The notes under the pieces are model-generated. The model saw nothing but the letters and a program-made list of their open reading frames with translations, had not been told where the DNA came from and made no database searches. Positions 3,686 through 60,534 of a DNA stretch of 64,000 nt are shown here, piece after piece (position 1 is the first letter of the stretch; every line of letters begins with the position of its first letter). Source of the DNA: Leucoraja erinacea (lineage: Eukaryota); contig NC_073381.1 in the NCBI RefSeq assembly GCF_028641065.1, forward strand, positions 70,804,001 through 70,868,000, given 5' to 3'. Both the position numbers and the translations under genes were made by a program.

Positions 3686-5458
3686 CAGCTGCACAACCTT
3701 TTATCCGAAAGCCTTGGGATTAAAGAGCACTTTTCGTAATTCAGAATTTTTCGGGGGCTTTCAGGGAATCCAAAGATTTTTGAGGATGTATCATCAAAAC
3801 AGCTGGCTCATATCTACCTGATGTGGGTTAGAGTGCTCATTATGTCACATGAAAATGAGGTATCCGTGAAGGTCGCGATTTTTGTATCGATCCCGTATTG
3901 CAGTTACTCGATCGCGATTTTGAGTCTTCAATGTAGTTTTTTACACTTGCAGAATAGGAGAGAATAGGGAGGGTTAGGCTGGGATTCTTGCCACTCTGCG
4001 AGATGAGGCTTAGTGCGGCGAGGAGACAAGTGAGAGTTAGATGTGGTGTACTGACTGTGTGGGCAGAACTTTGGACTGAGTGATTGCCCACCATTCTCAA
4101 AAGCCGCTGTGTCTCCCTGTCCGAATGAGCCAACTCCAGAGGAATCCGCTCCCCCGATTCTATTTCGCTACGGCGAACAAGTGGTTAGTTCGCCCACAGA
4201 CAAGCTGCGGCCCCTCATCCGCAAACCAGGGTTCCTCTGGAGTTGGAGCGGGGCTGGGCTAGAGTTTGCTGCTAACGTAGTGAGTCTCTGGGATCTCCGT
4301 GCTTGCAGTGGGAAAATGGGGGTCGGTGTCCCGATGAGGGGGCGGCAGCTCGGGCTGTGGGCGAACTGCCACTTGTCGCTGTAGCGGCGCATCGGGGAGC
4401 GGCTTCTGGTGGTCCTGACGTCTCTCAGCTCCTGTCTCAGGGGGGAAGGGACACGGAGACGTCAGGACCACAAGAACCCGCTAGCCCCGATGCGCCGCTA
4501 CAGCGACAAGTGGCAGTTCGCCCACAGCCCGAGCTGCGCCCCCTCATCCGCAACCCGGGTTCCTCTGGAGTTGGAGCGGGGCTGGGCTAGAGTTGCTGCT
4601 GGCTGTGAGTCTCTGGGATCTCCGTGCTTGCCAGTCGGTGTCCCGTTGGTCCTGACGTCTACCTCGGTCACCCCCCTGGAATGGAGCTGAGAACTGGGAA
4701 CTGTACAACCCTTGCCTGTACAAAGGTTAAAGATCCCTCTGCAACTGCAAAACAACCCCACAGTTCCCAGTCTCATATCTGCTGTACAGGGGGGGTGGCC
4801 GGAGACGTCATTAGCCCGAGCCATCAGCTTCTGTCCCTACGGGGACAGCGGAGAGCGTGGGTTCCTCTGGAATTGGAACGGGGGGCTGGGCTGCTGCTGG
4901 CTGTGGGACCTCTGGGTTCTCCGTGCTTGCAGTGGGCCTGGGGTCGGTGTCCCGTTGGTCCTGACGTCTCATCGGTGACTGGCACTGGCTCCAACGTTAA
5001 AAGACAGTGAAAAAGCCCCCGCGCCGGTGCAATGCGCGGGGAGCTGGAGAGGGGAGGGAAGGGGTCACACATATGGCCGGGAAGCAGAGGGGTGTAGGTG
5101 GGGTGAAACTGAAGGGAGCGACAATTTGCTGCTGCCTGCCCGCTGAGTTAAAAAGTTCCCACGCAAGACTCACGATACACTGTGTATCGTGAGTCTACCG
5201 TGGGAACTTTTTAACTCAGTGTGCAGGCAGCAGCAGATTGTCAATTATTAACCCTCCCGCGCAATATACCCTCACCTTCTCTTTTATGAATGGGGATTTA
5301 GTTCCCCTTTCTTCGAGGACCGACCGGAGGTTCCGCTGTCACCTCTGCGGGCCGCGCTCGGTGAACGTTTTCAAGGACCTTTCTTCAAGGACTGAAAAAA
5401 TGTCCGCTATTCGGAGGTTTTCGTTATTTGGATCTTCGGATAAAAGGTTGTGCACCTG
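3686..5458. mobile_element. Non-autonomous Tc1/mariner-pogo-type DNA transposon (about 1.77 kb)
   Basis: TIRs CAG(C/G)TGCACAACCTTTTATCCGAA at both ends, TA flanks at 3684-85 and 5459-60; no transposase ORF. Confidence 0.85.
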
Positions 5459-5887
5459 TATCAGTAAAATTTTATCAGGACAGTGAAACTAGCCAAAGTA
5501 GGATTTTCTTTGAACTGCATCCCCTTTGATTTGTTTTCACACCTTCTCCTTATCTGTCTCCCTCGCCCCCGACTTTCAGTCTGAAGAAAGACCCTCGCCA
5601 ATGTCTTGCAGAAATGTAACATGACCTCCTAGCCTCTATACTCAATTGACCGTAGGCCAATGTGCTAAAAGCCTTCTTGATCACCATATCTACCTCTGAG
5701 ACCACATTTCAAGGAACTATGTACCTGCACTCCTAGATCCCACTGTACAATATTTGGTTATGTTCAAAGGTAGAATGAGAAATTTAGAAAATTGCAAAAA
5801 TTCCTTAAGATCAGTCTATACCAATATCTGCATTCAAATATTATAAACTTTGATGAATGAATACTGCTTATTAATTGTCATTCTTAC

Positions 5888-5991
5888 CAAACGATCCACG
5901 ACTCCAAACAGACTGCAATACAATGTGGGTCCAAATGAGTAGTGTGAAAATGCCTCAAAGAATGTTGTTCTTGTGAGTTTTGACCACAACC
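5888..5991 (-). CDS. USP45: USP45 coding exon 3 (GCGQNSQEQHSLRHFHTTHLDPHCIAVCLESWIVW); gene continues beyond the left edge
   Basis: Manual translation continues the ZnF-UBP (GCG..S..HSL.HF...PHCI...W..W); ttag acceptor, gtaag donor; 104 nt. Confidence 0.92.
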
Positions 5992-8143
5992 CTAATAACA
6001 AGTGCAAAATATAGTCAGTATTAAAAAAAATGACAATTTTCTATGTGCATTAATATAGCAAATTTTATCATTAACTAAACAATTAATGCAGAAACCTGAG
6101 CATACTAAATTTAAAGTTTCACCTAAAATGTGAAAATGAACTTGTCTATGTTAAATCAATACCAACTTCAGCTTATTATACTACTGCTTAATAAAGCACA
6201 ACTTTATATTATCATTGAATCTTATATCTTTTAAGACTACACAGAGATGTAATCAGACAGAAATGAACTGATTTTAGGAAAAGTCATTTAAAATTCAGTT
6301 AAAGTGTTGAGCCTTCAAGAGAATCTAAATTAAAAAAGTACACATGTAGGAACTTAGACCATATCAGCGCATGGGACCAAGATGGTACAGCCATTGCAAG
6401 AGAGATGTCGAATGCACAAGAACCCAGGATTGAAGGAATGGAAAAATCCAAGCAGGTTAAGGTTACGAAAGTCTGTTGAGTGCAAGCCCATGAAGAGATT
6501 TAAACTGGACATGTGATTTTCTGTACTATTTAATTATTTCACTTCCTGCCAGTTTGGATACCTGTCATTTGCTTTGTTGTTTGTTACTCAGCACGTTTCC
6601 GGCCTGGGTCAATAATTTCCCTTCAATTCTGCAAGCTTAAACTTGCATATGAAAATATTTTCTAATACATTAGGTTCATACCAATATCAAGACATTCCTC
6701 TCATCCCTGGTTCCCATAAAAATCATCAGCCTGAAATATTAACTTAAACTGCTGAGAATTTCCAGTATTTTCTGCTTTCATTTCAGACTTCTAGCATCTG
6801 CAGTTTTTGATTTCCTGATATTCCCCATGTTAATTACTTTTACCTGCACAAATGGACACCACTGGCAAGGCACCATTATTTTAGTACAACATTGAAGTAT
6901 ACCTAGATTATAAACACATATCCTAGCAGAAATTTTCCACGCATTTATTTTCTTGATTTGGATGACAAATGACTATGGATTCAGATTTTAGACGGACCAA
7001 AGGACTATTCTAAATAGAATGAGAATAAGATAGGCAAGTGCCAGGGTAGAAATCAAGCATGGTCTTTCAAAAGGATGTTGAAGCATCAAATTAGATACTT
7101 CTGGTCCTACTTCTTGTGGTATTGGTGACCCTGGAGAAAACTGGCACATGCTAGAAATGCCAGTTCAAGTTTAGAATAACTACAGTAAACTAATATCACT
7201 TTAACTGTCTAGCAAGCTTGGAAATCACTGTCTTCTGTTAATTAAAAAAAACAGCAGTTTCAGAAATAAAAACTAAGAAATATCTAATAATTTGCTGCTG
7301 AAAATGAAACAATAAAAAAATTCAGAAGACATGCAAAATTCAAAGGAATTGCCCATTTGAATGCATATGATGGGTAAGTTTGTAAATAACATGAAAATTA
7401 GTGGTGTTGATAATGAGGTTAGTCTTAGACTGGAAAATGATATTGATCAGCTGATTAATTGCGCATAAGAATGACAGACAGAATTTAGTCCTTGTAAGTG
7501 TGAGGTGATACAATTTTGGATGTCTGATATGGGTAGGACATGGACCATGAATATTGAGAGGAGGGACATTGTGCACGTTCAAAGATTCCTGCAGGTGGCA
7601 GCACAGGTAGAAACATTGATGAAGAAAGCATATGGGATGCTGTCTTCATTCATCACAACACAGAATATCAGAGCGGAGAGGCCTTGGTACAACTTTAAAA
7701 AACTTGATTAGACCAGAGTCAGAATTGTGTGTAGCTTTAGTTGCCACCCACTACAAAGAACATGATTACAATGGAGAGAGTGAGGAGGTTCAAGGGGATA
7801 CTCAAGGAACGGCAGGTGCTGGAATCTTGAGCAAAACACCAAGTACTGGAGGAACACAACGAGGCTTGGGGGAGGAGAGACCATTCTAAATAGAATCGTG
7901 ACAGACTCTCTGAAATTTTATATCAGTGAACTTGTAAATTTCAACCTTCAAATCTGCAAAAAAACAGGATAAATGTACAACCATTAAGCCAATGTTCAAC
8001 ATTATAATTTGTGGATAAATGTGTTTGATGTGCTAAAAGACCTTGGCGTATTTCATGCAAGTTCTTTCCCTTAAATTGTATTTGAGATTACAAATCTTTT
8101 TTTTTTAAACCAAGGAGACAATGCAGTTGATTTAAACAATTAC

Positions 8144-9560: not shown

Positions 9561-9690
9561 TTTCGGCCCGAAACGTTGCCTATTTCCTTCGCTCCTGCTG
9601 CACCCGCTGAGTTTCTCCAGCATTTTTGTGTACCTTCGATTTTCCAGCACCTGCAGTTCCTTCTTAAACACATATACCCATACACATACA

Positions 9691-16324: not shown

Positions 16325-16615
16325 CCGCGCATGCGCCCGCTCCGTCAGGTGGACATGATCCTCGACTCGGCTCCAGGCCGGTCCCAATCGCCCGCGCATG
16401 CGCTCACCGCTTGCTCCGTCAGTTGGTCGACGCCGGCTCTACGCATGCGCTCATCGCCCGTTCCGACTCGGCTCCAGGCCGGTCCCAATCGCCCGCGCAT
16501 GCGCTCACCGCTTGCTCCGTCAGGTGGTCGACGCCGGCTCCACGCATGCGCTCCTCTCCCGTTCCGACTCGGCTCCAGGCCGGTCCCAATCGCCCGCGCA
16601 TGCGCTCACGCCCGC
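16325..16615. repeat. 101-bp tandem repeat (about 2.7 copies)
   Basis: GCGCATGCGC recurs at 16394, 16495 and 16596 within near-identical units. Confidence 0.9.
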
Positions 16616-16644
16616 TCCCGAAGCGCGGCTGGGCGGAGCCGATC

Positions 16645-16900
16645 TGAGCCGAGTCCGGCCGAGCTTGTCCGGGCGGGGAGAGCCGAGCCGAGTCGTGTGT
16701 GTCCGGGCGGGGAGCCGAGCCGAGTCGTGTGTGTCCGGGCGGGGAGCCGAGCCGAGCCGAGCCGAGCTTGTCCGGGCGGGAGCCGAGCCGAGTCGTGTGT
16801 GTCCGGGCGGGGAGCCGAGCTTACCCGAGTGGGGAGAGCCGAACCGAGTCGTGTGTGTCCGGGCGGGGAGCCGAGCTTGCCCGAGTCGAGCTTGTGGTCG
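16645..16900. repeat. GC-rich minisatellite (GAGCCGAGCCGAGTCGTGTGTGTCCGGGCGGG, roughly 30-35 bp unit)
   Basis: About 6 imperfect units directly visible. Confidence 0.9.
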
Positions 16901-16990
16901 AGCATGTCCTGGCCGAGCCTATCCGGGTGGGGTGGGTTTGGAGGGAAGGTTCGTCTGGGTCCGGGCGAGTCGTGAGTGGTTTCAGGAGTC

Positions 16991-17087
16991 ATGGCCGGCG
17001 TGGCCGGCTTGGTGACGGCGCTGCTACTGCGGACAGTGAGCCGGGGATGGGCTGTGGAAATGTGCCGCCAGCAAAGGAGGTGTTGGG
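16991..17087 (+). CDS. TSTD3: TSTD3 exon 1 (MAGVAGLVTALLLRTVSRGWAVEMCRQQRRCW)
   Basis: ATG in gtcATGG context at the island edge; G|GTGAGT donor; phase 1 matches exon 2. Confidence 0.72.
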
Positions 17088-18514: not shown

Positions 18515-19140
18515 ACATAGACAATAGGTGCAGGTGTAGGCCATTCGGCCCTTCGGGCCAGCACCGCCATTCAATACGACCATGGTTGATCATCCACAAT
18601 CAAACCCCGTTCCTGCTTTCTCCCCATATCCATTGATTCCGTTAGCCCTATCTAACTCTTTTAAATACATCCTGTGATCGGCCTCCAGTGCCTTCTGAGC
18701 AGAGAATTTCACAGATTCACATCTCTCAGGGTGAAAACGTTTTTCCTCATCTCAGTTCTAAATGGCTTACCTCTTATTCTTACACTGTGGCTCCTGGCTC
18801 TTGACTCCCCCACCATTGGGAACATGTTTCCTGCCACTAGCCTGTCCAATCCCTTAATAATGTTATATGTTTCTATAAGATCCTCTCTCATCCTTCTAAA
18901 TTCCAGTTTATAAAAGCCCAGTCGCTCGATTCTTTCATCATATGATAGCCCCGCCATCCCGGGAATTAATCTCGCGAACCTACGCTGCACTCCCTCAATA
19001 GCAGGAATGTCCTTCTTCAAATTAGGAAACCAAAACTGCACACAATACTCCAGGTCTGGTCTCAATAGGGCCCTGTACAACTGCAGAAGGTCCTCTTTGC
19101 TCCTATACCCAACTCCTCTCATTATGAAGGCCAACGCCAT
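18515..19140 (-). mobile_element. CR1 3' fragment
   Basis: ORF 18709-19140 encodes the CR1 RT C-terminus. Confidence 0.9.
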
Positions 19141-19539
19141 AGTTGTTCACCATTCACTAATCGACCAGATAACTTTGTTTCCAGTTTGAAGCCTGGTGAC
19201 CCCAGTTTACCCTCCAAGGAACACCCTCCCCCATTGGGTGTCACTTTTCAAAATTTGTCATTATGGACTTATAAGAGGGAGACTGTGTTTTAACAGACAT
19301 ACTGAAATGTATGCAGGATAAGTCCCGCAATAGAGATTAGTGTGCAGATTGGGGTAGGGCTAAAAATTAGATGATATATAAACAGTAGAAATGAATGGGC
19401 CTTTTGGGTTGGCAGACAGTTATGCGAGATACTGAGAAATTAGTGCTTTGGGCTCAGTATTAGAAATAATGACTTGCTTGAATAACCAAGGTATGCAAGG
19501 AGTTGCCACACAAAGGGCACTGATAAAGTTACAAAGTAT

Positions 19540-20345
19540 CCTGTGCATGGTCCTCCTTTGTTATTACCCCCTCACGGCAATTCCTCCACGCCAAGTCCTC
19601 TTTTGTTCTCGGCGACGCATCCTCCGGCTCCCATGCGGCCGACCTCGACAGCCACCAACCTCATCGACTGCCGACCCAGCCTCCCCGACAACTGCCACTG
19701 GAGCCACTCCGGACATCTCTGCGGCGCCAATCCAAAGCCCGGCCGCGGGGCTCCACAAGTACAGAGACCAGCTGCGGGGATCGCCACCCAGCTTCTTCGT
19801 GGCTTCTTGGGAGGTGTCTGCTGCTCACGGCCTCCTGGTAGGACCCTAGACCATGACCCCATAGATGAGGACCAGGCGACCATCTCGCAGAATTACCCTC
19901 TTTCCGATACGGAAAGGTTTGTCCTCAATAGAGGCCTCACTTTTGATCGCCTCTTCCCTCACCTCAACTAGTTCCAGGTCTGCCATAACGTATAGCTTTT
20001 CTTCCGTCGCCTCTGCCTCGTGCCTTTTCCCAGGGAAATGTGCCATCACCACCCAGTAATAACCCCTTCTCTCGGCTCCACTGGTCCCCCTCCTCTTTGA
20101 CACCCCGGACACCTCTTTACACCTTTTTACTTTTAACTGCGGGTGTAACATCAACCATCTCAACTTCTCCACTCCTTGACCTACTTTAACCTTACCCCCT
20201 TTGAACTTACATCCATTCTGCAGCAGCCCTGACATAATCATCAAACCTGCTGACAAGGGAGGTGACATAGTCGTCTGGTGAGCTGACTCCACCACGCTGA
20301 GGCCTAGCGCAGCTCTTGGACACTCACCCCCCCCAGCGTCTCTAC
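19540..20345 (+). mobile_element. Penelope-like element remnant (N-terminal region of the RT)
   Basis: LSDTERFVLNRGLTF (about 19897) and PDIIIKPADKGGDIVVW (about 20228) match characteristic PLE motifs; frameshifted. Confidence 0.8.
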
Positions 20346-23584: not shown

Positions 23585-26170
23585 ACAAAGAAATAGAAAA
23601 TAGGTGCAGGATTAGGCATTTCGGCCAATATGATCATGGCTGATCATTCAAAATCAGTACCCCGTTCTGGCTTTTTCCCAATATCCCTTGATTCCCTTAG
23701 CTGTAAGAGCTAAATCTAATTCTCTCTTGAAAACATCCAGGGAATTGGCCTCCACTGCCTTCTGTGGCAGAGAATTCCACAGATTCACAACTCTCTGTTT
23801 AAAAAGGTTTTTCCTCATCTCATTTCTAAATAGTCTACCCCTTATTCTTAAACTGTGACCCCTAGTTCTTGACTCCCCCAACATCGGGAACATTTTTCCT
23901 GCGTCTACCCTGTCTAATCCTCTAAGAAATGTATATGTTTCTATACGATCCCCTCTCATCCTTGTAAATTCCAGCGAATACAAGCCCAGTCGACCCATTC
24001 TTGCATCATACGTCAGTTCTAACAAATTAACCTGGTGAACCTACGCTGCACTCTCTCAAGGGCAATAATGTCCTTACTCAAATTGCACACCAAAATTGCA
24101 CACAATATTCCATGTGCGGTCTCACCAGGGCCCTGTACAACAGCAGTAGGACATCCTTGTTCCTAATCCCAAATCCTCTTGCAATGAAGGCCAACATGCC
24201 ATTGGCTTTCTTCACTGCCTGCTGTACCTGCTTGCTTACTTTCAGTGACTGATGTACAAACACACCCAGGTCTCGTTGCACCTCCCCTTCTCCTAATCTG
24301 ACACCATTCAGATAATAATCTGCCTTCCTGTTCTTGCCACCAAAGTGGATAACCCCACATTTATCCACATTCATACTTCATCTGCCATGCATCTGCGCAC
24401 TCACCCAACCTATCCGCCACCCTGCAGCCTCATAGCATCCTTTTCGCAGCTCACAGTGCCGCCCATCTTTGTGTTATCTGCAAACTTAGAAATGTTACAT
24501 TTAATTCCCTCATCTAAATCATCAACATATATTATAAACAACTGGGGTCCCCGCATCGAGCCTTGCGGTACATTCTGAAGAGGACCCGTTAATTCCTATT
24601 CTTTATTTCCTGTCTGCCAAACAGTGCTCTATCCTTGTCAATACCCTATCCCCAATACCATATGCTCTAATTTTGCACACTAATCTCTTGTGTGCAACCT
24701 TGTCAAAGGCTTTTTGAAAGTCCAGATACACCACATTCACTGGCTCTCCCTTATTCATTTTACTTGTTACATCCTCAAAAAATTTCAAAAGATTAGTCAA
24801 ACCCTTCATAAATCCATGCTGACTTTGACCAATCCCATCAATGCTTTCCAAATGCACTGCAATAACATCTTTAATAATCGACTCCAGCATCTTCCCCACT
24901 ACCGATGTAAGGCCACCGGGCCTATAATGTTCTCTCCTTTCTTAAAAAGTGAAGTTTCATTGGCTACCTTCCAGTCTACGGGAACTGATCCAGAGACGAG
25001 AGAACATTGTAAAATGATCAACATTGCATCCACGATTTCTAGGGCCACCTCCTTGAGTACTCTGGGATGCAGACCATCAGGCGCTGGGGATTTATCTGCC
25101 TTCAGTCCCAACAGTTTACCTAACACCATTTTCTAACTAATGTTGATACCAATAAAAAGCAACAGAACACACAAAATACATCTAAATATAAATATCCACC
25201 ACAGTGACTCCTCCACATTCCTCACTGATGGAAGGCGAAAAAAAGTTCAATCTCTCCCTTCTTTGTCCTCCAGCGGTCTGGGGCCTCTAACCTTCGGTTG
25301 ACGGAACGATCTTACTCCCTTAGCATCGGGGCCATCAAGCTCCTGCATCGGGGGGGGGGAATCTTAGCTCCCCACGCAGGGTGATTTACCCCGGGTCGGA
25401 GCTAGTCGAACGTTGTGCGACTTTTGGAGCTTCCCGACGTCGGTCTCAACCCGAGACTGCAAACCCCTCGATGTTAAAGTCCACAGGCCGCGGTTGGAGC
25501 GTTGATCCCAGGCAAGGAATCAGCTCCGATGTTAAATCCATGCCCCGCGGTGGGGCTCAAAGTCAGTCCCGAGCAAGGCCTCCAGCTCCAAGATGTTAGA
25601 CTGCAGAGCGACCGGAAATTCGATCCGGAAAAAAGAATCTCATCTCTGGCAAGGTAAGAAATTGAAAAAAAGTTTCCCCCCCGCCCACCCCCCACATAAA
25701 ACAAACGACAGATCATGAACACAAACTTTTTAAACACACTAAAAGTAACAAAAAAAATGGCGAAAAGGACAGACAGACTGAAGGCGATGCTGCCATCGAA
25801 GCGCCGCCCGGTGTAATGTTCCTCCCTCCGACTAGATCCTCGGTCCCCTAGTATTAGGGTTTTCATTTGTGTCTTTCTTAGTGGAGAACCAAAGTTTAAC
25901 TGTTCTCTAATTTCCTTGTTTCCCTTTATAAATTCACTGACTGTAAGGGACCTACATTCGTCTTAACTAATCTTTTCCGTTTTACATACCTATAGAGACT
26001 TTTACAGTCCGTTTTTATATTTCCCGCAAGCTTTCATGCTCTTTTCCCCCCGCTCTTAATTAACCACTTTGTCCTCCTCTGCTGAGTTCTAAATTTCTCC
26101 CAGTCCTCTGGTTTGCCGCTTCTTCTGGCCAATTTATATGTCTCTTCCTTGGCTTTAACACTATCTGATA
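23585..26170 (-). mobile_element. CR1 LINE (RT region) interrupted at about 25147-25815 by another repeat
   Basis: YLDFQKAFDKV, KSPAPDGLHPRVLKE motifs; the insert resembles repeats at about 29640-29910 and 38660-39110. Confidence 0.88.
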
Positions 26171-26329
26171 AATCTACTGTATACCAGTAATTTTCTGATA
26201 AGCTGCCTTGTCCGATTCCACTCTCGTATTTGATCATTATACAGATTTTGTTCCTTTTTATTTATAATGCTGATATTTAATTTCCCATTTTAAATAATGT
26301 TTGGATTCCTGTTGCAATATAGTCAGAAA

Positions 26330-26945
26330 GTAATACAGTGTGGAAACAAGCCCTTCGCTCCAACTCGCTTACACCGGCCAACAATGTCCCATCTACCCCA
26401 GTCCCACTTGCCTGCACTTGGTCCATAACCCTCCAAACCTGTCCTATCCATGTACCTGTCCAACTGTTTCTTAAACAATGGGATAGTCCCAGCCTCAACT
26501 ACCTCCTCTGGCAGCTTGTTCCATACACCCACCACTCTATGTGTGAAAAAGTTACCCCTCGGATTCCTATTAAATCTTTTTCCCTTCACCTTTAACCTAT
26601 GTCCTCTGGTCCTTGATTCCCCTACTCTGGGTAAAAGACTCTGTGCATCAACCTGATCTATTCCTCTCATGATTTTATACACCTCTATAAGATCTCCCCT
26701 CATCCTCCTACGCTCCATGGAATAGAGACCCAGCCTACTCAACCTTTCCCTATAGCTCACGCGCTCTAGTCCTGGTTACATCCTCGTAATTCCTTTCTGA
26801 ACCCTTTCAAGCTTGACAATATCTTTCCTATAACATGATGCCCAAAACTGAACACAATATTCTTATTGCGGTTTCACCAACGTCTTATACAATTGCAACA
26901 TGACCTCCCAACTTCTATACTCAATACTCTGACTGATAAAGTCAG
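26330..26945 (-). mobile_element. CR1 3' fragment of a second subfamily
   Basis: RRRMRGDLIEVYKIMRG...FFTHRVVGVWNKLP. Confidence 0.88.
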
Positions 26946-30329: not shown

Positions 30330-33300
30330 TACGGTCTGTGAAGGGTCCACAGACTTGGCGCAGGTATACACAAAGTAGTGCCTTCCTTCCACTGTTTTCA
30401 CTCAACCACTGTCTGCTTCAGAAGAAATGCCATCCAGAAGGAGACTGTGCCTAATGAAAACAGGTACGCCCTCTTGGGAACTGTCGGGGTAGACGACGCT
30501 TCCAGTCCAAGTGGCGGACACGTCGGAGGCTCCGATCCTAGAGATGGGACGAGACCGGCGAGACCAATGTTGCGCAGAGCCATAGTTGTGGGTGACTCCA
30601 TTGTTCAAGGTGAAGACAGGAGATTCTGTACGGCAGGCGAGACGCGAGGATGTTCTGTTGCCTCCCTGGTGCCAGGGTGCAAGATGTCACGCACTGAATT
30701 CAGAACATCCTCGAGAGGGAAGGTGAACGGCTGGCAGTAGTTGTGCACGTAGGCACAAATGACATCGGGAAGAAGAGGAAGGAGGTTCTGCAACGCGAGT
30801 TCTGAGAGTTAGGAAGAAGACTGAAAAGCAGGACTTCTAGGGTGGTTATCTCTGGATTTCTTCCAGTACTTCGCGCTAGTGAGGGCAGGAACAGGGAGAT
30901 AGGGGATCTCAATGTGTGGCTGAAGGGCTGGTGAAGGGAGCAAGGATTTAGATTTATAGACCACTGAGATCTCTTCTGGGGTAGGGGTGACCTGTGCAAA
31001 AGGGACGGGTTACAACTTAACTGGAGGGGGATCGACGTTCTGGCAGCCAGGTTTGCTAGGGCTCCACGTGTGGGTTTAAATTAATAGTGGGGGGAGGGAT
31101 TGATAAATTGTGAGTATAAAGATAGAGGAAGTGAGTGCAGGAAAGTGAGGACAGGAAAAGTGACAAAAGACTCGAATTAATGGGAAGGAAAGTTCGAAGA
31201 GGGATAAGAAAGTAAGATCAGGGCCAATTGCGAGAGGGGAGAGGGAACCTGATTTTCCCAGTCTACCTGCATGTTGTTATGGGAGATTTCAACATGCAGG
31301 TAGACTGGGAAAATCAGGTTGGTACTGGACCCCAAGAAAGGGAGTTTGTGGAGTGCTCCGTGATGGATTCTTAGAGCAGCTTGTCTTGCAGCCTACCAGG
31401 GAGAAGGCAATTCTGGATTTAGTGTTATGTAATGAACTGGATTTGATAAAGGACCTTGAGGTTAAGGAGCCATTAGGAGGTAGTGACCATAATATGGTCA
31501 AGTTTAATCTACAATTGGAGAGGGAACAAAGTAAATCAGAGGTGTCAGTGTTACAGTTGAATAAAGGGGACTATGGAGCCATGAGGGAGGAGCTGGCCAA
31601 AGTTGACTGGAAAGATACCCTAGCAGGGATGACAGTGGAACAACAATGGCAGGTATTTCTGGGAATAATATAGAAGGTGCAGGTTCAGTTCATTCCAAAG
31701 AGGAAGTAAGATTCCAAGGGGAGTAAGGGGGTTACAAGGGATGTCAGGGATAGTATAAAAATAAAAGAGGAAGTACAACGTGGCAAAGATGAGCGGGAAG
31801 CAAGAGTATTGGGAATGTTTAAAGAGCAATAGAAGCAATAGAGCAACTAAAAAGGCAATATGGGGAGAAAAGATGAGGTACGAAGGTAAGCTAACCAAGA
31901 ATATAAAGGAGGATAGTAAAAGCTTCTTTAGGTATTTGAAGCGGAAAAAATTAGTTAAGACCAAAAGTTGGATCCTTGAAGACTGAAAAAGATGAATTTA
32001 TTATGGGGAACAAGGAAATGGCAGATGAGTTGAACAGGTACTTTGGATCTGTCTTCACCAAGGAGGACACAAACAATCTTCCTGCTGTACAAGTGGCCAG
32101 AGGATCTGGGGTGACGGAGGAACTGAAGGGAATCCACATTAGGCAGGAAATGGTGCTGGGTAGACTGATGGGACTGAAGGCTGATAAATTCCCAAGGCCT
32201 GATGGTCTGCATCCCAGGGTACTTAAAGAACTGGCTCTAGAAATCGTGGACGCATTGGTGATAATTTTCCAATGTTCTATAGATTCAGGATGTTCCTGTG
32301 AATTGGAGGGTAATTAATATTATCCCATTTTTTAACAAAAGCGGGAGAGAGAAAACGGAATTCTAGACCAGTTAGCCTGACAACGGTGGTGGGGAAGATG
32401 CTGGAGTCAATTATAAAAGATGAAATAGCAGCACATTTGGATAGCAGTAACAGGATCGGTCCAAGTCAGCATGGATTTCCGAAGGGGAAATCATGCTTGA
32501 CTAATCTTCTGGAATTTTTTGAGGATGTAACTAGGAAAATGGACAAGGGAGAGCCAGTGGATGTAGTGTACCTGGACTCTCAGAAAGCATTTGATAAGGT
32601 CCCACATGGATTAGTGGGCAAAATTAGGACACATGGTATTGGGGGTAGAGTGCTGACATGGATAGAAAATTGGTTGGCAGACAGGAAACAAAGAGTAGGG
32701 ATTAACGGGTCCCTTTCAGAATGGTAGGCAGTGACTAGTGGGGTACCACAAGGCTCGGTGCTGGGACCGCAGCTATTTACAATATACATCAATGATTTAG
32801 ATGAAGGGATTCAAAGTAACATTAGCAAATTTGCAGATGACGCAAAGCTGGGTGGCAGTGTGAACTGTGAGGATGCTATGAGAATGCAGGGTGACTTGAA
32901 CAGGTTGGGTAAGTGGGCAGATGCATAGCCGATGGAGTTTAATGTGGATAAATGTTAGGTTATCCACTTTGCTGGCAAAAACAGGAAGGCGGATTACTAT
33001 CTAAATGGTGTCGTTGGGAAAAGGGGAAGTACAATGGGATTTGGGGGTCCTTGTTAATCAGTCAATTAAAGTTAGCATGCAGGTACAACAGGCAGTGAAG
33101 AAAGCTAATGCATGTTGGCCTTTATAACAAGAGGAGTTGAGTTGAGTTTTGGAGCAAAGAGGTCCTTCTGTAGTTCTATAGGGCCCTAGTGAGACCACAC
33201 CTGGAGTACTGTGTGCAGTTTTGGTCCCCTAATTTGAGGAAGGACATTCTTGCTATTGAGGGAGTGCAGCGTAGGTTTACTAGGTTAATTCCTGGGATGG

Positions 33301-39679: not shown

Positions 39680-40810
39680 ATTCACACTGCCACCCAGCTT
39701 TGTGCCATCTGCAAATTTGCTAATGTTACTTTGAATCCCTTCATCCAAATCATTGATGTATATTGTAAATGGCTGCGAGCACCGAGCTTTGCGGTACCCC
39801 ACTGGTCACTGCCTGCCATTCTGAAAGGGACCCGTTAATCCCTACTCTTTGTTTCCTGTCTGTCAACCACTTCTCTATCCATGTCAGCACTCTACCCCCA
39901 ATACCATGTGCCCTAATTTTGCCCACTAATATCCTATGTGGGACCATATCAAATGCTTTCTGAAAGTCCAGGTACATTACATCAACTGATTCTCCCTTGT
40001 CCATTTTCCTAGTTACATCTTCAAAAAATTCCAGAAAATTAGTCAAGCATGATTTCCCCTTCGGAAATCCATGCTGAAGCGGACTGTTACTGCTATCCAA
40101 ATATGCTGCTATTTCATCTTTTATAATTGACTCCAGCATCTTCCCCACCACCGATGTCAGGCTAACTGGTCTAGAATTCCGTTTTCTCTCTCCCGCCTTT
40201 CTTAAAAAATGGGATAACATTAACTACCCTCCAATTCACAGGAGCTGATCCTGAGTCTATAGAGCATTGGAAAATTATCACCAATGCATCCACAATTTCT
40301 AGAGCCACTTCCTTAAGTACCCTGGGATGCAGACCATCAGGCCCAGGGGATTTATCAGCCTTCAGACCCATCAGTCTACCCAGCACCATTTCCTGCCTAA
40401 TGTGGATTCCCTTCAGTTCCTCCCTCCCACTAGAACCTTGGTCCCCTAGTATTTCTGGGAGATTGTTTGTGTCTTCCTTAGTGAAGACAGAACCAAAGTA
40501 CTTGTTTAACTGTTCTGCCATTTCTTTGTTTTCCCATTATAAATTCACCTGTCTGATTGTAAGGGACCTACATTTGTCTTCACTAATCTTCCTTTTTACA
40601 TATCTAACGAAGCTTTTAGAATCAGTTTTTATATTCCCCGCAAGCTTTCTTTCATGGTCTTTCTTCCCCCCCCCCCCCCCCCCCCATAATTAACCCCTTT
40701 GTAGGATCCTCTGGCCACTACTATATCAGGAAGATTGTTTGTATCATCCTCAGTGAAGGCCGATCCAAAGTACCTGTTCAACTCATCTGCCATTTCCTTG
40801 TTCCCCAGTT
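39680..40810 (-). mobile_element. CR1 RT fragment in CCNC intron 9
   Basis: ORFs 39750-40220 and 40171-40521. Confidence 0.9.
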
Positions 40811-42989: not shown

Positions 42990-43722
42990 CTTCACAAAGA
43001 ATGCAAAATAGTATTAAATAGTTGACATAAGTCTCCAAAACAGTCCCAAACAAATTCAGGTTCGATGGTATAACAAGTGTAAAATATCATCTTGCTACAG
43101 GGATCACAGCCTAAATCCAGTCTAAATAGATCTACTATGTTTATTGCTATAAGGATATACACTGAATTATATCTGGCAAATTAGTATTCAGTATGAATTT
43201 ACAACTTTAAACTACTTTATTTGAAAGTGATTGGCACTGAAGCTGCATGCCCAAAATAGGAAAGTGATCTATTTCCAAAAGCTATCTATTTTGTTTAAGA
43301 CCCAAGGAACTGCAGATGCTGGAATCTTGAGTAAAACAGCAAGTAAATCAGCAGGTTAGGCAGCATCTTGGAGGAAGTATGAGCTTCAGACTCATTGTAG
43401 TTGGTGAGAGAAAATTGGAAAGGTGATGTCCCCTTCCTCCAATAGTCCTTCCTCTAGATTTATATTTCCCTCCTCTTTTCTTCTTATCTGACACCCTTTG
43501 GTTTCCTTTTCATCGCCAGCCATCTGCCAATAAAACCTTCTCACCTGTCGAATGTTACTATTACTTGTCAGGCTTTGTCCAGGCCCCACCTCTTTTCCAG
43601 ATCTCTCCTCCGTACTACAATTAGTTTAAAGAACGGTCCCGACTCGAAACGTCACTGAGGTAACATCAACATCAACAGTTTGAGGTGTTAATTTTTGTTG
43701 TAAATAAGTCAAGAGCACTTAC

Positions 43723-48720: not shown

Positions 48721-50075
48721 TCTATATTACTAAAACTCTGATCTTGACCACTTCCTGTGGTTCTGTATATTGATTTTAGAAAAAACGTTGCACCTTACGG
48801 CTGTGATTTTTGGCCATCTTACTCAGAGTCCCCCTCCGCTGCGCAGGACAAGAGGATTTTTCCCATCGATAAAAAATAAAAGTTATTAGTGTTTAAAAAA
48901 TGTTGAGATTCTCTCTCCAGAATGCCACGCCCCTTCCGGAGGGACTATAAAAAACAGAAGTGTTGAGTGCCTGTCAGTTTCTGCAAGATCGGGTAGCGAG
49001 AGGGTCACGTCTCTCAGTCTGAGCTGTGAATAACACTGAACACATGTCTACTAAACTGTGAGTGTTTTTACTGACCTGTCAGTGCCCTTAATGTGGTTTG
49101 AAAATATAGATAGGAAATGCTAAAGCTGTGTTGCCATTGGTTTGGAAATGCTAAAGCTGTGTTGCCTTTGATTTGGAAATGCTAAAGCTGCGTTGCCTTT
49201 GGTTTTGAAATGCTAAAGCTGTGTTGCCTTTGGTTTTGAAATGCTAAAGCTGTGTTGTCTTTGGTTGGGAAATGCCAAAGCTGTGTTGCCTTTGGTTTTG
49301 AAATGCTAAAGCTGTGTTGTCTTTGGTTGGGAAATGCCAAAGCTGTGTTGCCTTTGGTTTTGAAATGCTAAAGTTGACTTGCCTAATTAAAGTTGCCTTG
49401 CCTTCTATATAATTAAAAGTATAATCTTGACCACTTCCTGTTTGCGCTTTATATTGATTTTAGAAAAAACGCTACCACGTACGGCTGTGATTTTTGGCCA
49501 TCTTACTCAGTCCCCTTCCGCTCATCAGGTGCCGAGGATTTTTCCCAGCGATTAAAAATAAAAGAGTTATTAGTGTTTAAAAAATGTTGAGATTATCTCT
49601 CCTGTCAATCACACCATGAAGGCCACGCCCCCTCTGGTGGGAAGGGGGTAGGTACTATAAAACCCAGAAGTGTGGGCGTGGCTCAGTCTCTGCAAGATGG
49701 AGATGGGAGAGGTCACGACTCGCTGTCTTTATTGGCCTTGCACCCTGCATGAAATTGTAAGAAACAGCACTTGAAGTTGGTTGCCTTGCACCCTGCTTGA
49801 AATGGTATTTGAAGGAATAGCCGCGAGTCAACTGCCAGCCCACCAGCCATGAGTGAGTGAGCTGCCAGCACAACAGGCTTGAGTGACTGAGCTGCCAGCC
49901 CAAGAATCCATTCAGCCCACAATGTCCATACTAGCCCTCTGGAAACCAGTCCCTTCAGCCCACAACACCCATATTAGCACTCCAGAAAGCCCCCCCCTCC
50001 CCCCCAATTGAAATTGGTGGAGAGGTGGAATATTTCCTTGGGGACCAGCCCTCCCGTGTGATGCTGGGAACTTAG
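48721..50075 (+). mobile_element. Non-autonomous element (possibly Helitron-like) with an internal duplication and minisatellite
   Basis: Starts A|TCTATATTACTAAAACTCTGATCTTG; about 250-bp duplication (48741-48990 vs 49424-49700); no TIR seen. Confidence 0.5.
49113..49390. repeat. Minisatellite of about 31 bp (GAAATGCTAAAGCTGTGTTGCCTTTGGTTTT), about 8.5 copies
   Basis: Directly visible. Confidence 0.93.
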
Positions 50076-55619: not shown

Positions 55620-57335
55620 ACATAGAACATAGTAAAATAGGTACAGGAGTAGGCCATTTGGCCGTTCGAGCCAGCACCACCATTCAATATTATCATGGCT
55701 GATCATCTAAAATCTGTACCCCGTTCCTGCTTTCTCCCCATATTCCCCTATTCCTTTCGTCCTAAGAGCTAAATCTAACTCTCTCTTGAAAACATCCAGT
55801 GAATTGGCCTACACTGCCTTCTGTGGCAGAGAGTTCCACAGATTCACAACTCTGCGTGAAAATATTTTCCTCATCTCAGTCCTAAATGGCCTACCCCTCA
55901 TTCTTAAACTGTGACGCCTGGTTCTGAACTCATCCAACATTGGAAACATTTTTCCTGCATCTAGCCTGTCCAATCTATTAAGAATGTTATATGTTTCTAT
56001 AAGATCTCCTCTCATCCTTCAAAATTCCAGTGAATACAAGCCCAGTCGTCCCATTCTTTCATCATATGTCAGTCCTGCCATCCCAGGAATTAACCTTGTG
56101 AACCTACGCTGCACTCCTTCAATAGCAATAATGTCCTTCCTCAAATTAGGAGACCAAAATTGCACACAATACTCCAGATGTGCTCTCACCAGGGCCCTGT
56201 ACAACTACAGTAGAACCTCCTTGCTCCTAAACTCAAATCCTCTCGCAATGAAGGCCAACATGCCATTAGTTTTCTTCACTGCCTGATGTACCTGCATGAC
56301 TGATGTACAAGCACACCCAGGTCTCGTTGCAGCTCCCCTTTTCTTAATCTGACACCATTCAGTTAATGCTGGAGGTATCTAGGCGGGGCAGACACCATCT
56401 CTGGAGAGAAGGAATGGGTGATGTTTCAGGTCGAGACCCTTCTTCAGACTTCTGAAGAAGGGCCTCGACCCGAAACAACATCCGTTCCTTCTCTCCAGAG
56501 ATGCTGTCTGTTCCACTGAGTTTCGCCAGCATTTTGATTTGATTCTACCTTCGATTTAAACCAGCATCTGCAGTTCTTTCCTACACCATTCATATAATAA
56601 TCTGCCTTTATGTTCTTGCCACCAAAGTGGATAACCTCACATTTATCTACATTATATTGCATCTGCCATGCTTCTGCCCACTCACCCAACCACCCTGCAG
56701 CATCATAGCATCCACCTTGCAGCTCATACTGTCACCCAGCTTTGTGTCATCCTCAAACTTGGAGATGTTACATGTAATTCCCTCATCTACATCGTTAATG
56801 TATACATTGTAATTAACTGGGTCCCAGCACAGAGCCTTGCGGCACCCCACTAGTCATTGCCTGCCATTCTGAAATGGACCCGTTAATTCCTACTCTTTGC
56901 TTAGTGTCTGCCAACCAGTTCTCTATCCATGTCAATACCTTATCGCAATACCATGTGCTCTGATTTTGCACACTAATCTCTGGTGTGGGACCTTGTCAAA
57001 GGCTTTTTGAAAGTCCAGATACACCACATCCACTCTCCCTTATCCATTCTACTTGTTACATCCTCAAAAAATTCCAGAAGATTAGTCAAGTAAGATTTCC
57101 CCTTCATAAATCCAAGCTGACTTTGACCGATCCTGTCACTGCTTTCTAAATGCGTTGCTATAACATCTTTAATAATCGACTCGAGCATCTTCCCCACTAT
57201 GATGTAAGGCTAACTGGTCTATAATTCCCCGTTTTCTCTCTCCCTCCTTTCTTAAAAAGTGAAGTTACATTGGCTACCCTCCAGTCCACAGGAACTGATG
57301 CAGTGTCGAGAGAACAATGGAAAATGATCACCAAG
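55620..57335 (-). mobile_element. CR1 RT/3' fragment in CCNC intron 1, interrupted at 56362-56582
   Basis: RT motifs in ORFs 55809-57197. Confidence 0.9.
56362..56582. mobile_element. Fold-back Penelope-derived short element inserted in a CR1
   Basis: Inverted arms; TSD ACACCATTCA at 56352-56361 and 56583-56592. Confidence 0.8.
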
Positions 57336-57588
57336 TACACAAATACAGAAGCAACATTCAGAGGGGCAACAAAATATATTTTAATTTCAAAGCATATCTC
57401 CAGAAGCATGACTGCAAGTTATCTCCTTGATCCAAATAAGTGCGTAATACCAATTATGATAATATAAAGCACAACAAATGTGGTCACTGAAAAGTAGATC
57501 CTTCAAGATGTTCAAGAAGGAACTGTAGATGCTGGAAAATCGAAGGTACACAAAAATGCTGGAGAAACTCAGCGGGTGCAGCAGCATC

Positions 57589-57623
57589 AGTCTGAAGAAG
57601 GGTTTCGGCCCGAAACGTTACCT
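57589..57623 (+). ncRNA. Minimal hammerhead ribozyme motif in a fold-back repeat (57511-57679)
   Basis: AGT-CTGAAGA-A-GGGT TTCG GCCC-GAAAC-GTT-ACC: core boxes present and stem II capped by UUCG. Confidence 0.62.
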
Positions 57624-58914
57624 ATTTCCTTCGCTCCATAGATGCTGCTGCACCCGCTGAGTTTCTCCAGCATTTTTGTGATCCTTCAAGATGGTCTTAC
57701 CGATTGTTTTTGTGCCTTGATATCAAGATTAAGACCATAATGCCACCAATTACCCATATGATCCCTACTGTAAAATGTTGGTAAGATAATATTAATTTTC
57801 AAAATTAAAATGAGTTTCAGAATAATTATGTAATTGTACATGTTATAAAAAGTTTCTAAATGCCCTATCACAGCCCAAATTATGGCAAGAATCAACTGTT
57901 GGCATGCGCACTCATTACTTTACTAAAACCAAGCCCAATTACACAGTTAGCCTTTTTGGATTTAAACAGTCCAAAAGATTCCAATGGTAATTGTCCAAAA
58001 CACATCTTAGAATTATTGAAAATGTATGACACAAAAGGCCATTTATATGATTGTGCTGGTGGGAGTCAAAAAGGAGCTACCCAGCCTAATCCCACTCTCC
58101 ATGATATAATAATACTTTAAAGGTACCAAAACATACAGAAAGGCCATTATTGAATCAGCATTTTGCAACAATAATATTAGGGTGGAGCAAAAGTGCAGTA
58201 CAGGATGGATTAGGATGGTACAAAAAATAGACACAAAATGCTGAAGTAACTCAGCGGGTCAGGCAGCATCTATGGAGAAAAAGGATGGGTGACATTTTGG
58301 GAAAAGGATCTCAACCCGAAACGTCACCCATCTTTCTTTTCCCCAGAGATGCCACCTGACCCACTCCAGCACTTTGTGTCTATCTTTGGTATCAACCAGC
58401 ATCTGCAGTTCTGTTTCTAAGATGGTACCAAGTCTGGAAACCATTTAGTTAATCGGGTAATCACACCATTGATTCAGAATTGTGCCGAGTATTAATATTG
58501 TAATACAATTCAGTGACAGGCCAAATGGTATAAACTGTGTTGGGATCCATACAGTGAATGACTTTCTAATATCCAGGTGGCAAGAATGCCGTGGGGAGTT
58601 AATATGGTGGTGTCCACAATGGATGAGCCAAGGCCAGGTGTGAGAGTCAATGACCCTTTCATTGTGCACAGATACATGGATCATCCAGTGTACCCCCTCT
58701 GTCTCCAGACTGGGTGGGCGAGAATTAACTAGGTGTATAAACAAGCCAGGTCTCAGCCAAGCTGGGTGTAGGACTCCCCTTCCGAACCCCCTCCTCATGC
58801 CCAGTACAGTTGTAGGGTTCACTCACTGTAGCACCTCCTCGTCCCCAGGCCAGGCCAGGTGGGTGAGATGGGCCACGTTTAATGATGAGTGAAGCATTCC
58901 TTGTGCTGGTTTGA

Positions 58915-59550: not shown

Positions 59551-59930
59551 TTGTGGCCGGGCCTCCCAGGCCGCTGCTCGGATCAAACACTCACTAGTGC
59601 GAGCTCTGCCAGAAGTTGCCCGCCATCCCCCTCGCTCCCTCGCCGCCGCTCCCGGGCTCTCCGCCGCCTTGTCTCCGCCGCCTTGTCTCCGCCGCCTTGT
59701 CTCCTCCGCCTTGTCTCCGCCGCCTTGTCGCCGCCGGTTTGCCGATGTGTTGTAAACCCAGCTCTAGCCGGGCATTCTCTGCAACTTCCAAATGATTCCG
59801 CCAAGGAACCCGGGGTCACGTTGAAGGTGCCCGGTTATAAACCTTCCGGGCGGCCTTGCAAAGGGGAGGATCTCCTTCTTTCACCATCTTATTCCCGCGG
59901 CAAAACTGCAGACTTTTCCCCAAAATCATT
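59550..59930 (-). promoter_or_regulatory. CCNC CpG island / promoter and 5' UTR, with a 14-bp CCGCCGCCTTGTCT repeat
   Basis: CpG-rich region around exon 1; repeat units at 59661-59735. Confidence 0.7.
59595..59626 (-). CDS. CCNC: Cyclin C exon 1 (MAGNFWQSSHY)
   Basis: Matches the cyclin C N-terminus; GTGAGT donor; lies in a CpG island. Confidence 0.95.
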
Positions 59931-60344
59931 CCCACTCTGAAAGGTGCAATTGCATATTTGCTATTTGTTTAAATGATGCCGTTTAAACATTAATCTATGC
60001 TCTGTTCGTGCAAATTCACATTCCACATCCCCCCCAAACGAAAAATGAAATCCTGGTTTGAAGAAGAGTCTCGGCCCGAAACGTCACCCATTTCTTCTCC
60101 CCAGAGATGATGCCTGTCCCGCTGAGTTACTCCAGCTTTTTGTGTCTGTCCTGGTTTTATACTTCATTTATCTTGCGTCCAGGAACCAAAACATAACGCG
60201 TAATCCATTATTAATTCATTATTTTTTGAGCAGGTATTTTACAAATTACTTTCTAAATGCTCTAAGTGATTAATTGAATCATATGTGAACACAAATGCTG
60301 GAGAAACTCAGCGGGTGAGGCAGCATCTATGGAGTGAAGGAATC

Positions 60345-60378
60345 GGTGACGTTTCGGGTCGAGACCCTTCTTCAGACT
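60345..60378 (-). ncRNA. Minimal hammerhead ribozyme motif (best copy) in a fold-back repeat (about 60287-60500)
   Basis: Minus strand reads AGT-CTGAAGA-A-GGGTCTCGACCC-GAAAC-GTC-ACC. Confidence 0.68.
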
Positions 60379-60534
60379 CAGTCTCGACCCTAAACATTGC
60401 CTATTTCATTCGCTCCATAGATGCTGCCTGACCCGCTGAGTTTCTCCAGCTTTTTTGTCTACCTTCGATTGTTCCAGCATCTGCAGTTCTTTCTTAAACA
60501 GATTCATATGCTACTCATCATCCCTGGCATTCCT

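Follow-up and report, generated by a model that had tools for sequence, protein, structure and literature searches.

A minimal hammerhead motif in an abundant skate repeat that probably arose as run-off copies of a Neptune-type Penelope-like element

The insertion at 60286..60500 and its hammerhead motif

The window analysed here is a stretch of 64,000 nt of Leucoraja erinacea DNA, and positions given without a locus name refer to it. At 60286..60500 it holds a 215-bp insertion made of two head-to-head arms (60277-60378 on the minus strand and 60381-60500 on the plus strand by alignment), which we read as a single insertion of a Penelope-like element (PLE). It is flanked by a left target-site duplication (TSD) at 60276..60285 (+), nine of whose ten letters are identical to those of the 10-bp right copy at 60501..60510 (+). 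The 5' edge of the minus arm is AGT (60376..60378, -), from TCAGT of the parent element; the 5' ends of young copies cluster here, and the RNA would start here as well. Positions within the repeat unit are numbered from the C of the CUGA box, which is 0. On the same strand, about 22 nt after the predicted ribozyme cut, stands the ATG that opens the PLE open reading frame (ORF) in long copies (60324..60326, -), and the first ORF codons continue to the short 3' end at about +90 (60286..60323, -). Two loci, L124 and L130, run from the equivalent ATG into the ORF, and L124:653-1252 translates without a stop.

The minimal type I hammerhead motif occupies 60346..60378 (-), as delimited from the window sequence and a descriptor using features defined by Cervera and de la Pena (2014, PMC4209133). 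Its parts, all on the minus strand, are the 5' side of stem I (60377-60376), the CUGAAGA box (60375-60369), an extra A (60368), stem II (60367-60364 with 60359-60356, loop CUCG), the GAAA box (60355-60352), a palindromic ACGU (60352-60349), C17 (60348) and the 3' side of stem I (60347-60346), with the predicted cut falling between 60348 and 60347. The minus-strand letters from 60378 to 60345 are exactly those given by an earlier sequence-only reading of this DNA, and its identification of 60345-60378 (-) as a Penelope-type minimal type I hammerhead is borne out by the sequence features. The core boxes CUGANGA and GAAA and an NUH triplet are present, the extra nucleotide between A9 and G10.1 is A in 95% of copies, G10.1-C11.1 is G-C in 143 of 191, and the motif lies in the pLTR of a PLE. 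Helix III is replaced, as had been noted, by the palindromic ACGU alone: positions 15.2-16.2 are CG in 112 of 198 copies, and the rest are mostly explained by CpG decay (TG in 31, CA in 30). Stem I had been put at 2-3 bp, of which 2 bp stand, the third position being an A.C mismatch in 128 of 141 copies; helix I has 2 bp in 27 of 40 intact copies, 3 bp in two and 0-1 bp in 11. A loose hammerhead pattern also matched the window above chance (four matches against 0.58 expected, with four or more in none of 100 shuffles).

The PLE minimal hammerheads described in the portions of PMC4209133 available to us share with the skate motif the CUGANGA and GAAA boxes, the extra nucleotide after A9, G10.1-C11.1, the palindromic 15.2-16.2, the missing helix III and the pLTR location, and they too occur mostly as single or opposite-strand copies from truncated PLEs. 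The skate helix I of 2 bp is shorter than the 4-5 bp typical of the class, although D. virilis also has 2 bp; the skate helix II has 4 bp, and the skate motif shows little diversity, unlike the hammerheads of that paper. By every sequence feature tested, the motif is a PLE minimal hammerhead, and as a member of a class known since 2014 it is no novelty in itself. One of the two supplement files of the same paper contains no shark or skate terms.

The inverted arm (60381..60500, +) starts at +10 and so has no CUGA box, has lost G12 and G16.2, and reaches the long 3' end (+128), with the 34-nt tail included. A second inverted pair lies at 57508..57686, and its plus arm (core at 57592) carries the other intact motif of the window, from the youngest subfamily and with a UUCG loop. 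The covarying stem II that had been proposed for this copy (at 57589) turned out to be a one-sided change from U-A to U.G together with a loop change from CUCG to UUCG.

Family members are present at all 17 further places that had been listed and at 57589, but as hammerheads the listed copies fared less well: in several the core is missing or G12 or G16.2 has been lost, and at 9561 the side of the copy that should hold the core is unreadable. The window contains 33 family copies by profile and one more by blastn alone (43623-43658), i.e., about one per 1.9 kb, so the high density that had been estimated at one per 3 kb is in fact greater. Only two of these roughly 34 copies, 57592 (+) and 60375 (-), passed the full descriptor, which demands the core boxes, a G-C-based stem II, a palindromic 15.2-16.2 and NUH. 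The expectation that ordinary annotation would not flag the repeat holds for Rfam, which gave no gathering match in the window; at E<=10, 54-64 kb returned 31 matches with no hammerhead family among them.

Other repeats lie alongside. A decayed reverse transcriptase (RT) remnant of an older Penelope-like family is found at 19849..20304 (+), with 71.5% identity over 425 nt to an element at L153. Broken RT frames of another LINE family, at 932-1756, 18709-19146, 23654-25136, 26323-26775, 30342-32727, 39750-40693 and 55915-56286, make up a large share of the window; we take this family to be CR1/L2-like. The regions 49052-49423, 59644-59755 and 16350-17000 hold tandem repeats with units of 31 nt and 14 nt and a repetitive block rich in GC.

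A terminal unit of a Neptune-type element

On the sequence evidence, the short repeat is the terminal unit (hammerhead, start codon and 34-nt tail) of a Neptune-type PLE with RT and GIY-YIG domains. In long copies the GIY-YIG ORF ends about 100-120 nt upstream of the motif, and three of nine close relatives at other loci of the genome carry this frame end 5' of the motif. Walking further upstream led to RT motifs and then to loci in which the ORF start follows the same unit, the ATG at about +50 opening a frame of at least 200 codons. As the unit stands directly before the ORF start in some loci and after the ORF end in others, it stands at both ends of the element, whose layout is unit, ORF (RT, CX4CxxC linker, GIY-YIG), 3'UTR and unit again. 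A protein search scored 150 ORF copies that, with few exceptions, match the query exactly; the longest of their open frames measure 1127 and 1085 aa. These two frames are cut short at their 5' ends and hold DKG, the RT motifs, the CX4CxxC linker and an endonuclease with IYC..C/YIGET; 119 nt past them follows the same hammerhead as at 57592, and near-intact PLE ORFs are present in this genome. In about ten of the ORF copies the open frame measures 746-755 aa, which suggests a common break or truncation point.

Pfam matches to RVT_1 (E=1.8e-6) and GIY-YIG (E=4.8e-4) both fall below the curated cut-off, with the motifs present; the ORF N-terminus gave no Pfam match and no protein homolog, and the broken RT pieces gave no Pfam match. 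Of 300 protein homologs, many carry RVT_1 or GIY-YIG, the best are in sharks and rays, and the top identity (81%) is to a skate protein. PLE RT pieces are also annotated inside isoforms of ray and skate genes (protein matches P0003, P0006 and P0040), reflecting either exonisation or mis-annotation.

A single ORF with RT and C-terminal GIY-YIG (CCHH), partial tandem and inverted pLTRs, a tail at one end and variable TSDs place the element among the EN+ PLEs. We call it Neptune-type because of its CX4CxxC linker, of the CX2-5CxxC form between RT and EN that Craig et al. (2021, PMC8557442) define and that Nematis also has, and the call is made from motifs rather than from an RT tree. In the sections of that paper drawn on here, Neptune elements resemble the skate element in RT, linker and C-terminal GIY-YIG with CCHH, and likewise in partial tandems, an inverted 5'-truncated copy and a tail at one end only. 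The skate element differs in its extreme excess of 100-130 nt copies and in a long low-complexity N-terminal region, its ORF exceeding 1,100 aa. At four loci (L039-L042, around 3900-6000 in each) we observed a common composite of about 2 kb, a 720-nt partial PLE tandem with other repeats, which could be a segmental duplication or a carrier element.

The very high copy number that had been claimed is confirmed. We searched 819,900 nt, made up of 82 arbitrarily chosen 10-kb pieces, with a profile that covers only the sequence 3' of the ribozyme, and obtained 355 matches against none when the sequence was reversed. Scaled to the whole genome, this amounts to about 0.95 million fragments, each arm being counted separately. 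The same sample contained 40 descriptor-passing copies (none in the reversed control), a strict pattern found 59,188 exact intact cores genome-wide (control 0), and one 62-mer is present 9,271 times. PMC4209133 gives about 9,000 for Xenopus and about 4,000 for coelacanth in the passages at hand, with descriptors that differ from ours. The skate copies are thus unusually numerous for a PLE hammerhead, the pairing of motif and PLE being already known. Family matches also occur in four runs of other organisms, where alignment ends at 60378 are partly an artefact of the letter at -4 in the window copy and were left out; a metagenome scan for relatives confirmed none of 163 pattern stretches.

The repeat had further been taken for a distinct non-autonomous family, and here the evidence points the other way. 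The 345 matches for which flanks were taken include 204 distinct copies that extend to the core (83 solo, 59 inverted, four tandem and 58 with 3'UTR upstream), while about 40% of the matches (140 of 345) are not aligned as far as the core. Of the 204, 165 could be assigned to five subfamilies and 39 were left unassigned, with divergence ranging from about 1% to 11%. In all five subfamilies short copies and 3'UTR-bearing long copies have similar divergence (e.g., 1.0/0.6/1.0% and 8.3/8.9/7.6%), and none of the five is a short-only subfamily with diagnostic changes of its own. Equal ages and the presence of both lengths in each subfamily imply that the short copies were made by the same masters, and at the same times, as the long ones.

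An independent, self-propagating SINE- or retrozyme-like family using PLE proteins is, in our view, very unlikely. Short copies do greatly outnumber ORF-bearing ones, 9,271 identical 62-mers exist, and short copies carry their own TSDs (at least 6 nt in 14 of 72 solo copies, against none of 72 swapped controls). Against such a family stand the equal ages and the missing short-only subfamily, the first ORF codons included in the unit, the joints of 300-500 nt mini-copies, which all differ, and the rarity of tandem arrays. Only 13 tandem neighbours occur among 388 matches, unlike tandem retrozymes, and intact same-strand pairs within 1 kb number three in 904,000 nt. Non-LTR retrozymes (Li, Clavereau and Pollet, bioRxiv 10.64898/2026.07.22.740005), as portrayed in the accessible part of that preprint, are likewise pLTR-derived and hammerhead-bearing and are reported in one chondrichthyan, with a mean of 363 bp. 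They are, however, tandem arrays with a ribozyme in each unit, whereas the skate copies lie scattered, as solos or as inverted pairs, and contain ORF codons. Small tandem arrays whose 35-42 nt units span all or part of the hammerhead were observed at L084:5022-5140, L292-L297 and G000:C14:46491315-46491586 and are possible retrozyme-like seeds.

Conservation and predicted folding of the ribozyme core

The excess conservation expected of a working core is absent among genomic copies and appears between subfamilies. Non-CpG core columns mismatch in 6.7% of cases (132/1984) against 7.1% (368/5164) for fixed columns downstream (p=0.5), and the catalytic G12, which lies in a CpG, is lost in 27% of copies, as other CpGs are. 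Copies decay neutrally after insertion, and selection is visible only between subfamilies: none of 13 core columns differs, against 19 of 85 others (p=0.049), a comparison that is partly circular in that several of the 19 helped to define the subfamilies. With seven fixed stem II columns added, none of 20 differs (p=0.008). The predicted covariation of stem II across the family was not found: over about 190 copies its four pairs show nine two-sided changes, where chance predicts 6.2. Within the motif, the changes that separate subfamilies affect loop II, U-A to U.G pairs in stems I and II, and C17 (to U), and are one-sided and compatible with pairing. The 3'UTRs just upstream differ widely between subfamilies, and CAGT and the core are constant. 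This pattern fits a functional motif in active elements surrounded by dead copies.

The predicted folds argue for weak ribozyme activity. Stems I and II together give -3.9 kcal/mol against -5.5 for the best monomer fold. A dimer through helix III, at -12.7 kcal/mol, is more stable than two separate monomers (-11.0) but less so than an inactive co-fold (-21.1). In the 90-nt unit stem I has a predicted probability of 0 and stem II of 0.23, and both fall to 0 inside the 212-nt hairpin of the 60286..60500 locus, whose read-through RNA is predicted to fold into a hairpin of -116.5 in which the motif is buried. About nine of every ten copies are broken or locked in a hairpin. The weak predicted activity agrees with the low in vitro activity of minimal hammerheads (PMC4209133) and with the protein-assisted cleavage of PAc, a Poseidon element of the green anole (Frangieh et al. 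2024, PMC11167929), as both are set out in the excerpts used. No genomic footprint of cut RNA was found: only two of 345 copies start at +27..+30. In short head-to-tail tandems, for which two patterns gave 219 and 237 matches, the upstream copy ends anywhere from +18 to +35 among the first 100 matches of each, and at the cut in two of 25 read by eye.

The 2-bp stem I, the unfavourable folds and the missing footprint would all suit a motif that, having lost cleavage in this lineage, persists because it acts as a promoter or binds protein, and eight of nine frog dimers were uncleaved in the portion of the retrozyme preprint available (bioRxiv 10.64898/2026.07.22.740005). Nevertheless, all changes in the motif between subfamilies are tolerated by a hammerhead and none lies in the core, a 2-bp helix I is also present in D. 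virilis (PMC4209133), and PAc, in the experiments reported in the available text, cleaves once protein is added (PMC11167929). We therefore regard loss of cleavage as quite unlikely; it is compatible with the run-off explanation of the short copies and does not exclude it.

Formation of the short copies

The ends of the copies cluster. When random DNA is aligned to a long copy, the depth climbs about five-fold over the interval from -12 (about 29) to 0 (142). TSDs of at least 8 nt were found in 28 of 82 young copies, 27 of which have their 5' ends within -6..+3; the commonest clean end is -2 (seven copies), and 12 of the 28 are blurred by microhomology. The 3' ends fall at about +93 and +128, two sites some 34 nt apart within the first ORF codons. 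Among 30 loci that continue into the ORF, eight begin at the 5' edge of the ribozyme, five have 3'UTR upstream and the rest are cut further in. Most of the 30 (21) are internally deleted copies that leave the ORF within 382 nt, and in 11 of these 21 the ORF start jumps to a unit beginning at -5..+2, at AGT in four cases, the joint carrying 10-12 A in two of the 11. Inverted pairs are head-to-head in 68 cases and tail-to-tail in three among 388 matches, and in 47 of 67 one arm has the long tail and the other the short one, against 33.1 expected (p=0.0005).

Nine loci (L230, L232, L238, L239, L241, L244, L246, L248 and L249) are mini-elements in which the unit is followed by 150-370 nt of ORF start and by the unit again. 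Two same-strand hammerheads thus lie 300-500 nt apart, a natural dimer substrate. No two of the joints are alike, and in some related loci the joint contains poly(A). At L209:885 a young copy is inserted in the tail of an older copy of the same family.

The long and short tail pairs, together with the 5' ends, suggest run-off cDNA made from uncleaved RNA and primed on both target strands. Our favoured explanation is that the motif is a minimal type I hammerhead of a Neptune-type PLE and that the short repeat is probably a dead-end run-off copy of the first 100-130 nt of the element's RNA rather than a separate family. The PLE RNA would begin at TCAGT directly before the ribozyme, which we take to be an initiator-like motif. 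Penelope of D. virilis has an internal initiator-type promoter, according to the sections drawn on (PMC2377424). The PLE protein would nick both target strands, and RT would start internally at the two tail sites, each strand priming its own cDNA and so giving inverted pairs whose two tails differ in length. Having copied about 95 or 130 nt, the cDNA would run off the RNA 5' end; it would then either jump to another RNA end or be joined into the target, alone or within an inverted pair. Long copies would be started at these sites too, but in the downstream repeat of a read-through transcript. With uncleaved RNA as the template in this model, the ribozyme would act elsewhere in the cycle, most likely by slowly cutting off, with the help of dimerisation or protein, the 31-nt leader that precedes the start codon, or in release from read-through transcripts.

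PAc offers an in vitro parallel for this mechanism. In the parts of the paper available (PMC11167929), RT starts internally at two sites, both strands are extended, uncleaved RNA is used and hammerhead cleavage needs protein. As in the skate, the hammerhead sits where pLTR and ORF meet, the genomic copies have two 3' ends that fall within the start of the ORF and delimit a 30-40 nt tail, and there is no sign of cut RNA being inserted. The skate element differs in its Neptune-type linker and in its ATG, which follows the ribozyme and in PAc lies inside it; the sharp 5' pile-up and the pairing of long with short tails have no counterpart in the PAc text available. A search of the open-access literature found nothing on skate or shark PLE hammerheads, PLE run-off copies or twin priming in PLEs, apart from the one chondrichthyan in the retrozyme preprint.

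Several observations run contrary to run-off. The 5' edge is spread over -6..+3, with its mode at -2, one letter inside the A(-3) expected of the initiator, and no excess of cap-derived G at copy 5' ends is evident by eye. Most of the 30 ORF-continuing loci, beyond the eight at the edge and the five with 3'UTR, are cut further in; the active fold is not favoured, and the 140 matches noted above stop short of the core. Alternatively, the short copies could be ordinary 5'-truncated ends of long RNAs, linear tandem or cut and circularised, with an RT roadblock just past the ribozyme for which a bound protein, a dimer contact or the pyrimidine-rich 3'UTR are candidates. Such truncation is typical of PLEs in the account of PMC8557442 available to us, coverage declines steadily toward the ORF 5' end, and a circular template, as discussed in the available part of PMC4209133, likewise predicts intact ribozymes and no ends at the cut site. 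A structural block should, however, halt RT 3' of the fold and not after it, the step is sharp and common to subfamilies with unalignable 3'UTRs, and ORF-bearing copies begin at the same edge in those eight loci. We consider a roadblock rather unlikely, though it deserves weight.

The 5' edge also resembles a 3' splice site (pyrimidine tract, CAG|U), every subfamily having a pyrimidine-rich 3'UTR with terminal CAG, so that short copies might stem from spliced or half-spliced RNA. An intron of D. virilis ends at helix I (PMC4209133, in the passages at hand), and one contig of one presumed-RNA run skips 90 nt at the edge. That skip, however, is without GT..AG ends, clean copy ends fall at -2/-3 and not at -1, the joints of mini-copies are variable and without an upstream AG, and for 119 exact matches to the predicted joint the ORF end lay upstream in none of eight examined. 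A splice origin is therefore highly improbable.

Building on the run-off explanation, it is tempting to go further, albeit tentatively and with a reading that is somewhat less likely than not: the hundreds of thousands of insertions may be a fossil read-out of a Penelope intermediate, a "strong-stop" cDNA from a capped hammerhead 5' end with two-strand priming and mimicry of a SINE, the ribozyme being a protein-triggered decapping switch. If this is true, a 5'-terminal ribozyme would act as a decapping switch on the element's own mRNA and not as a maker of templates. The value of the skate family lies in its scale and legibility, with at least 59,188 intact cores, a subfamily diverged by about 1% and near-intact ORFs, which make it a natural data set for how PLEs build inverted and tailed insertions and for what weak hammerheads do. 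It also carries a lesson, namely that what looks like a SINE can turn out to be one end of an autonomous element.
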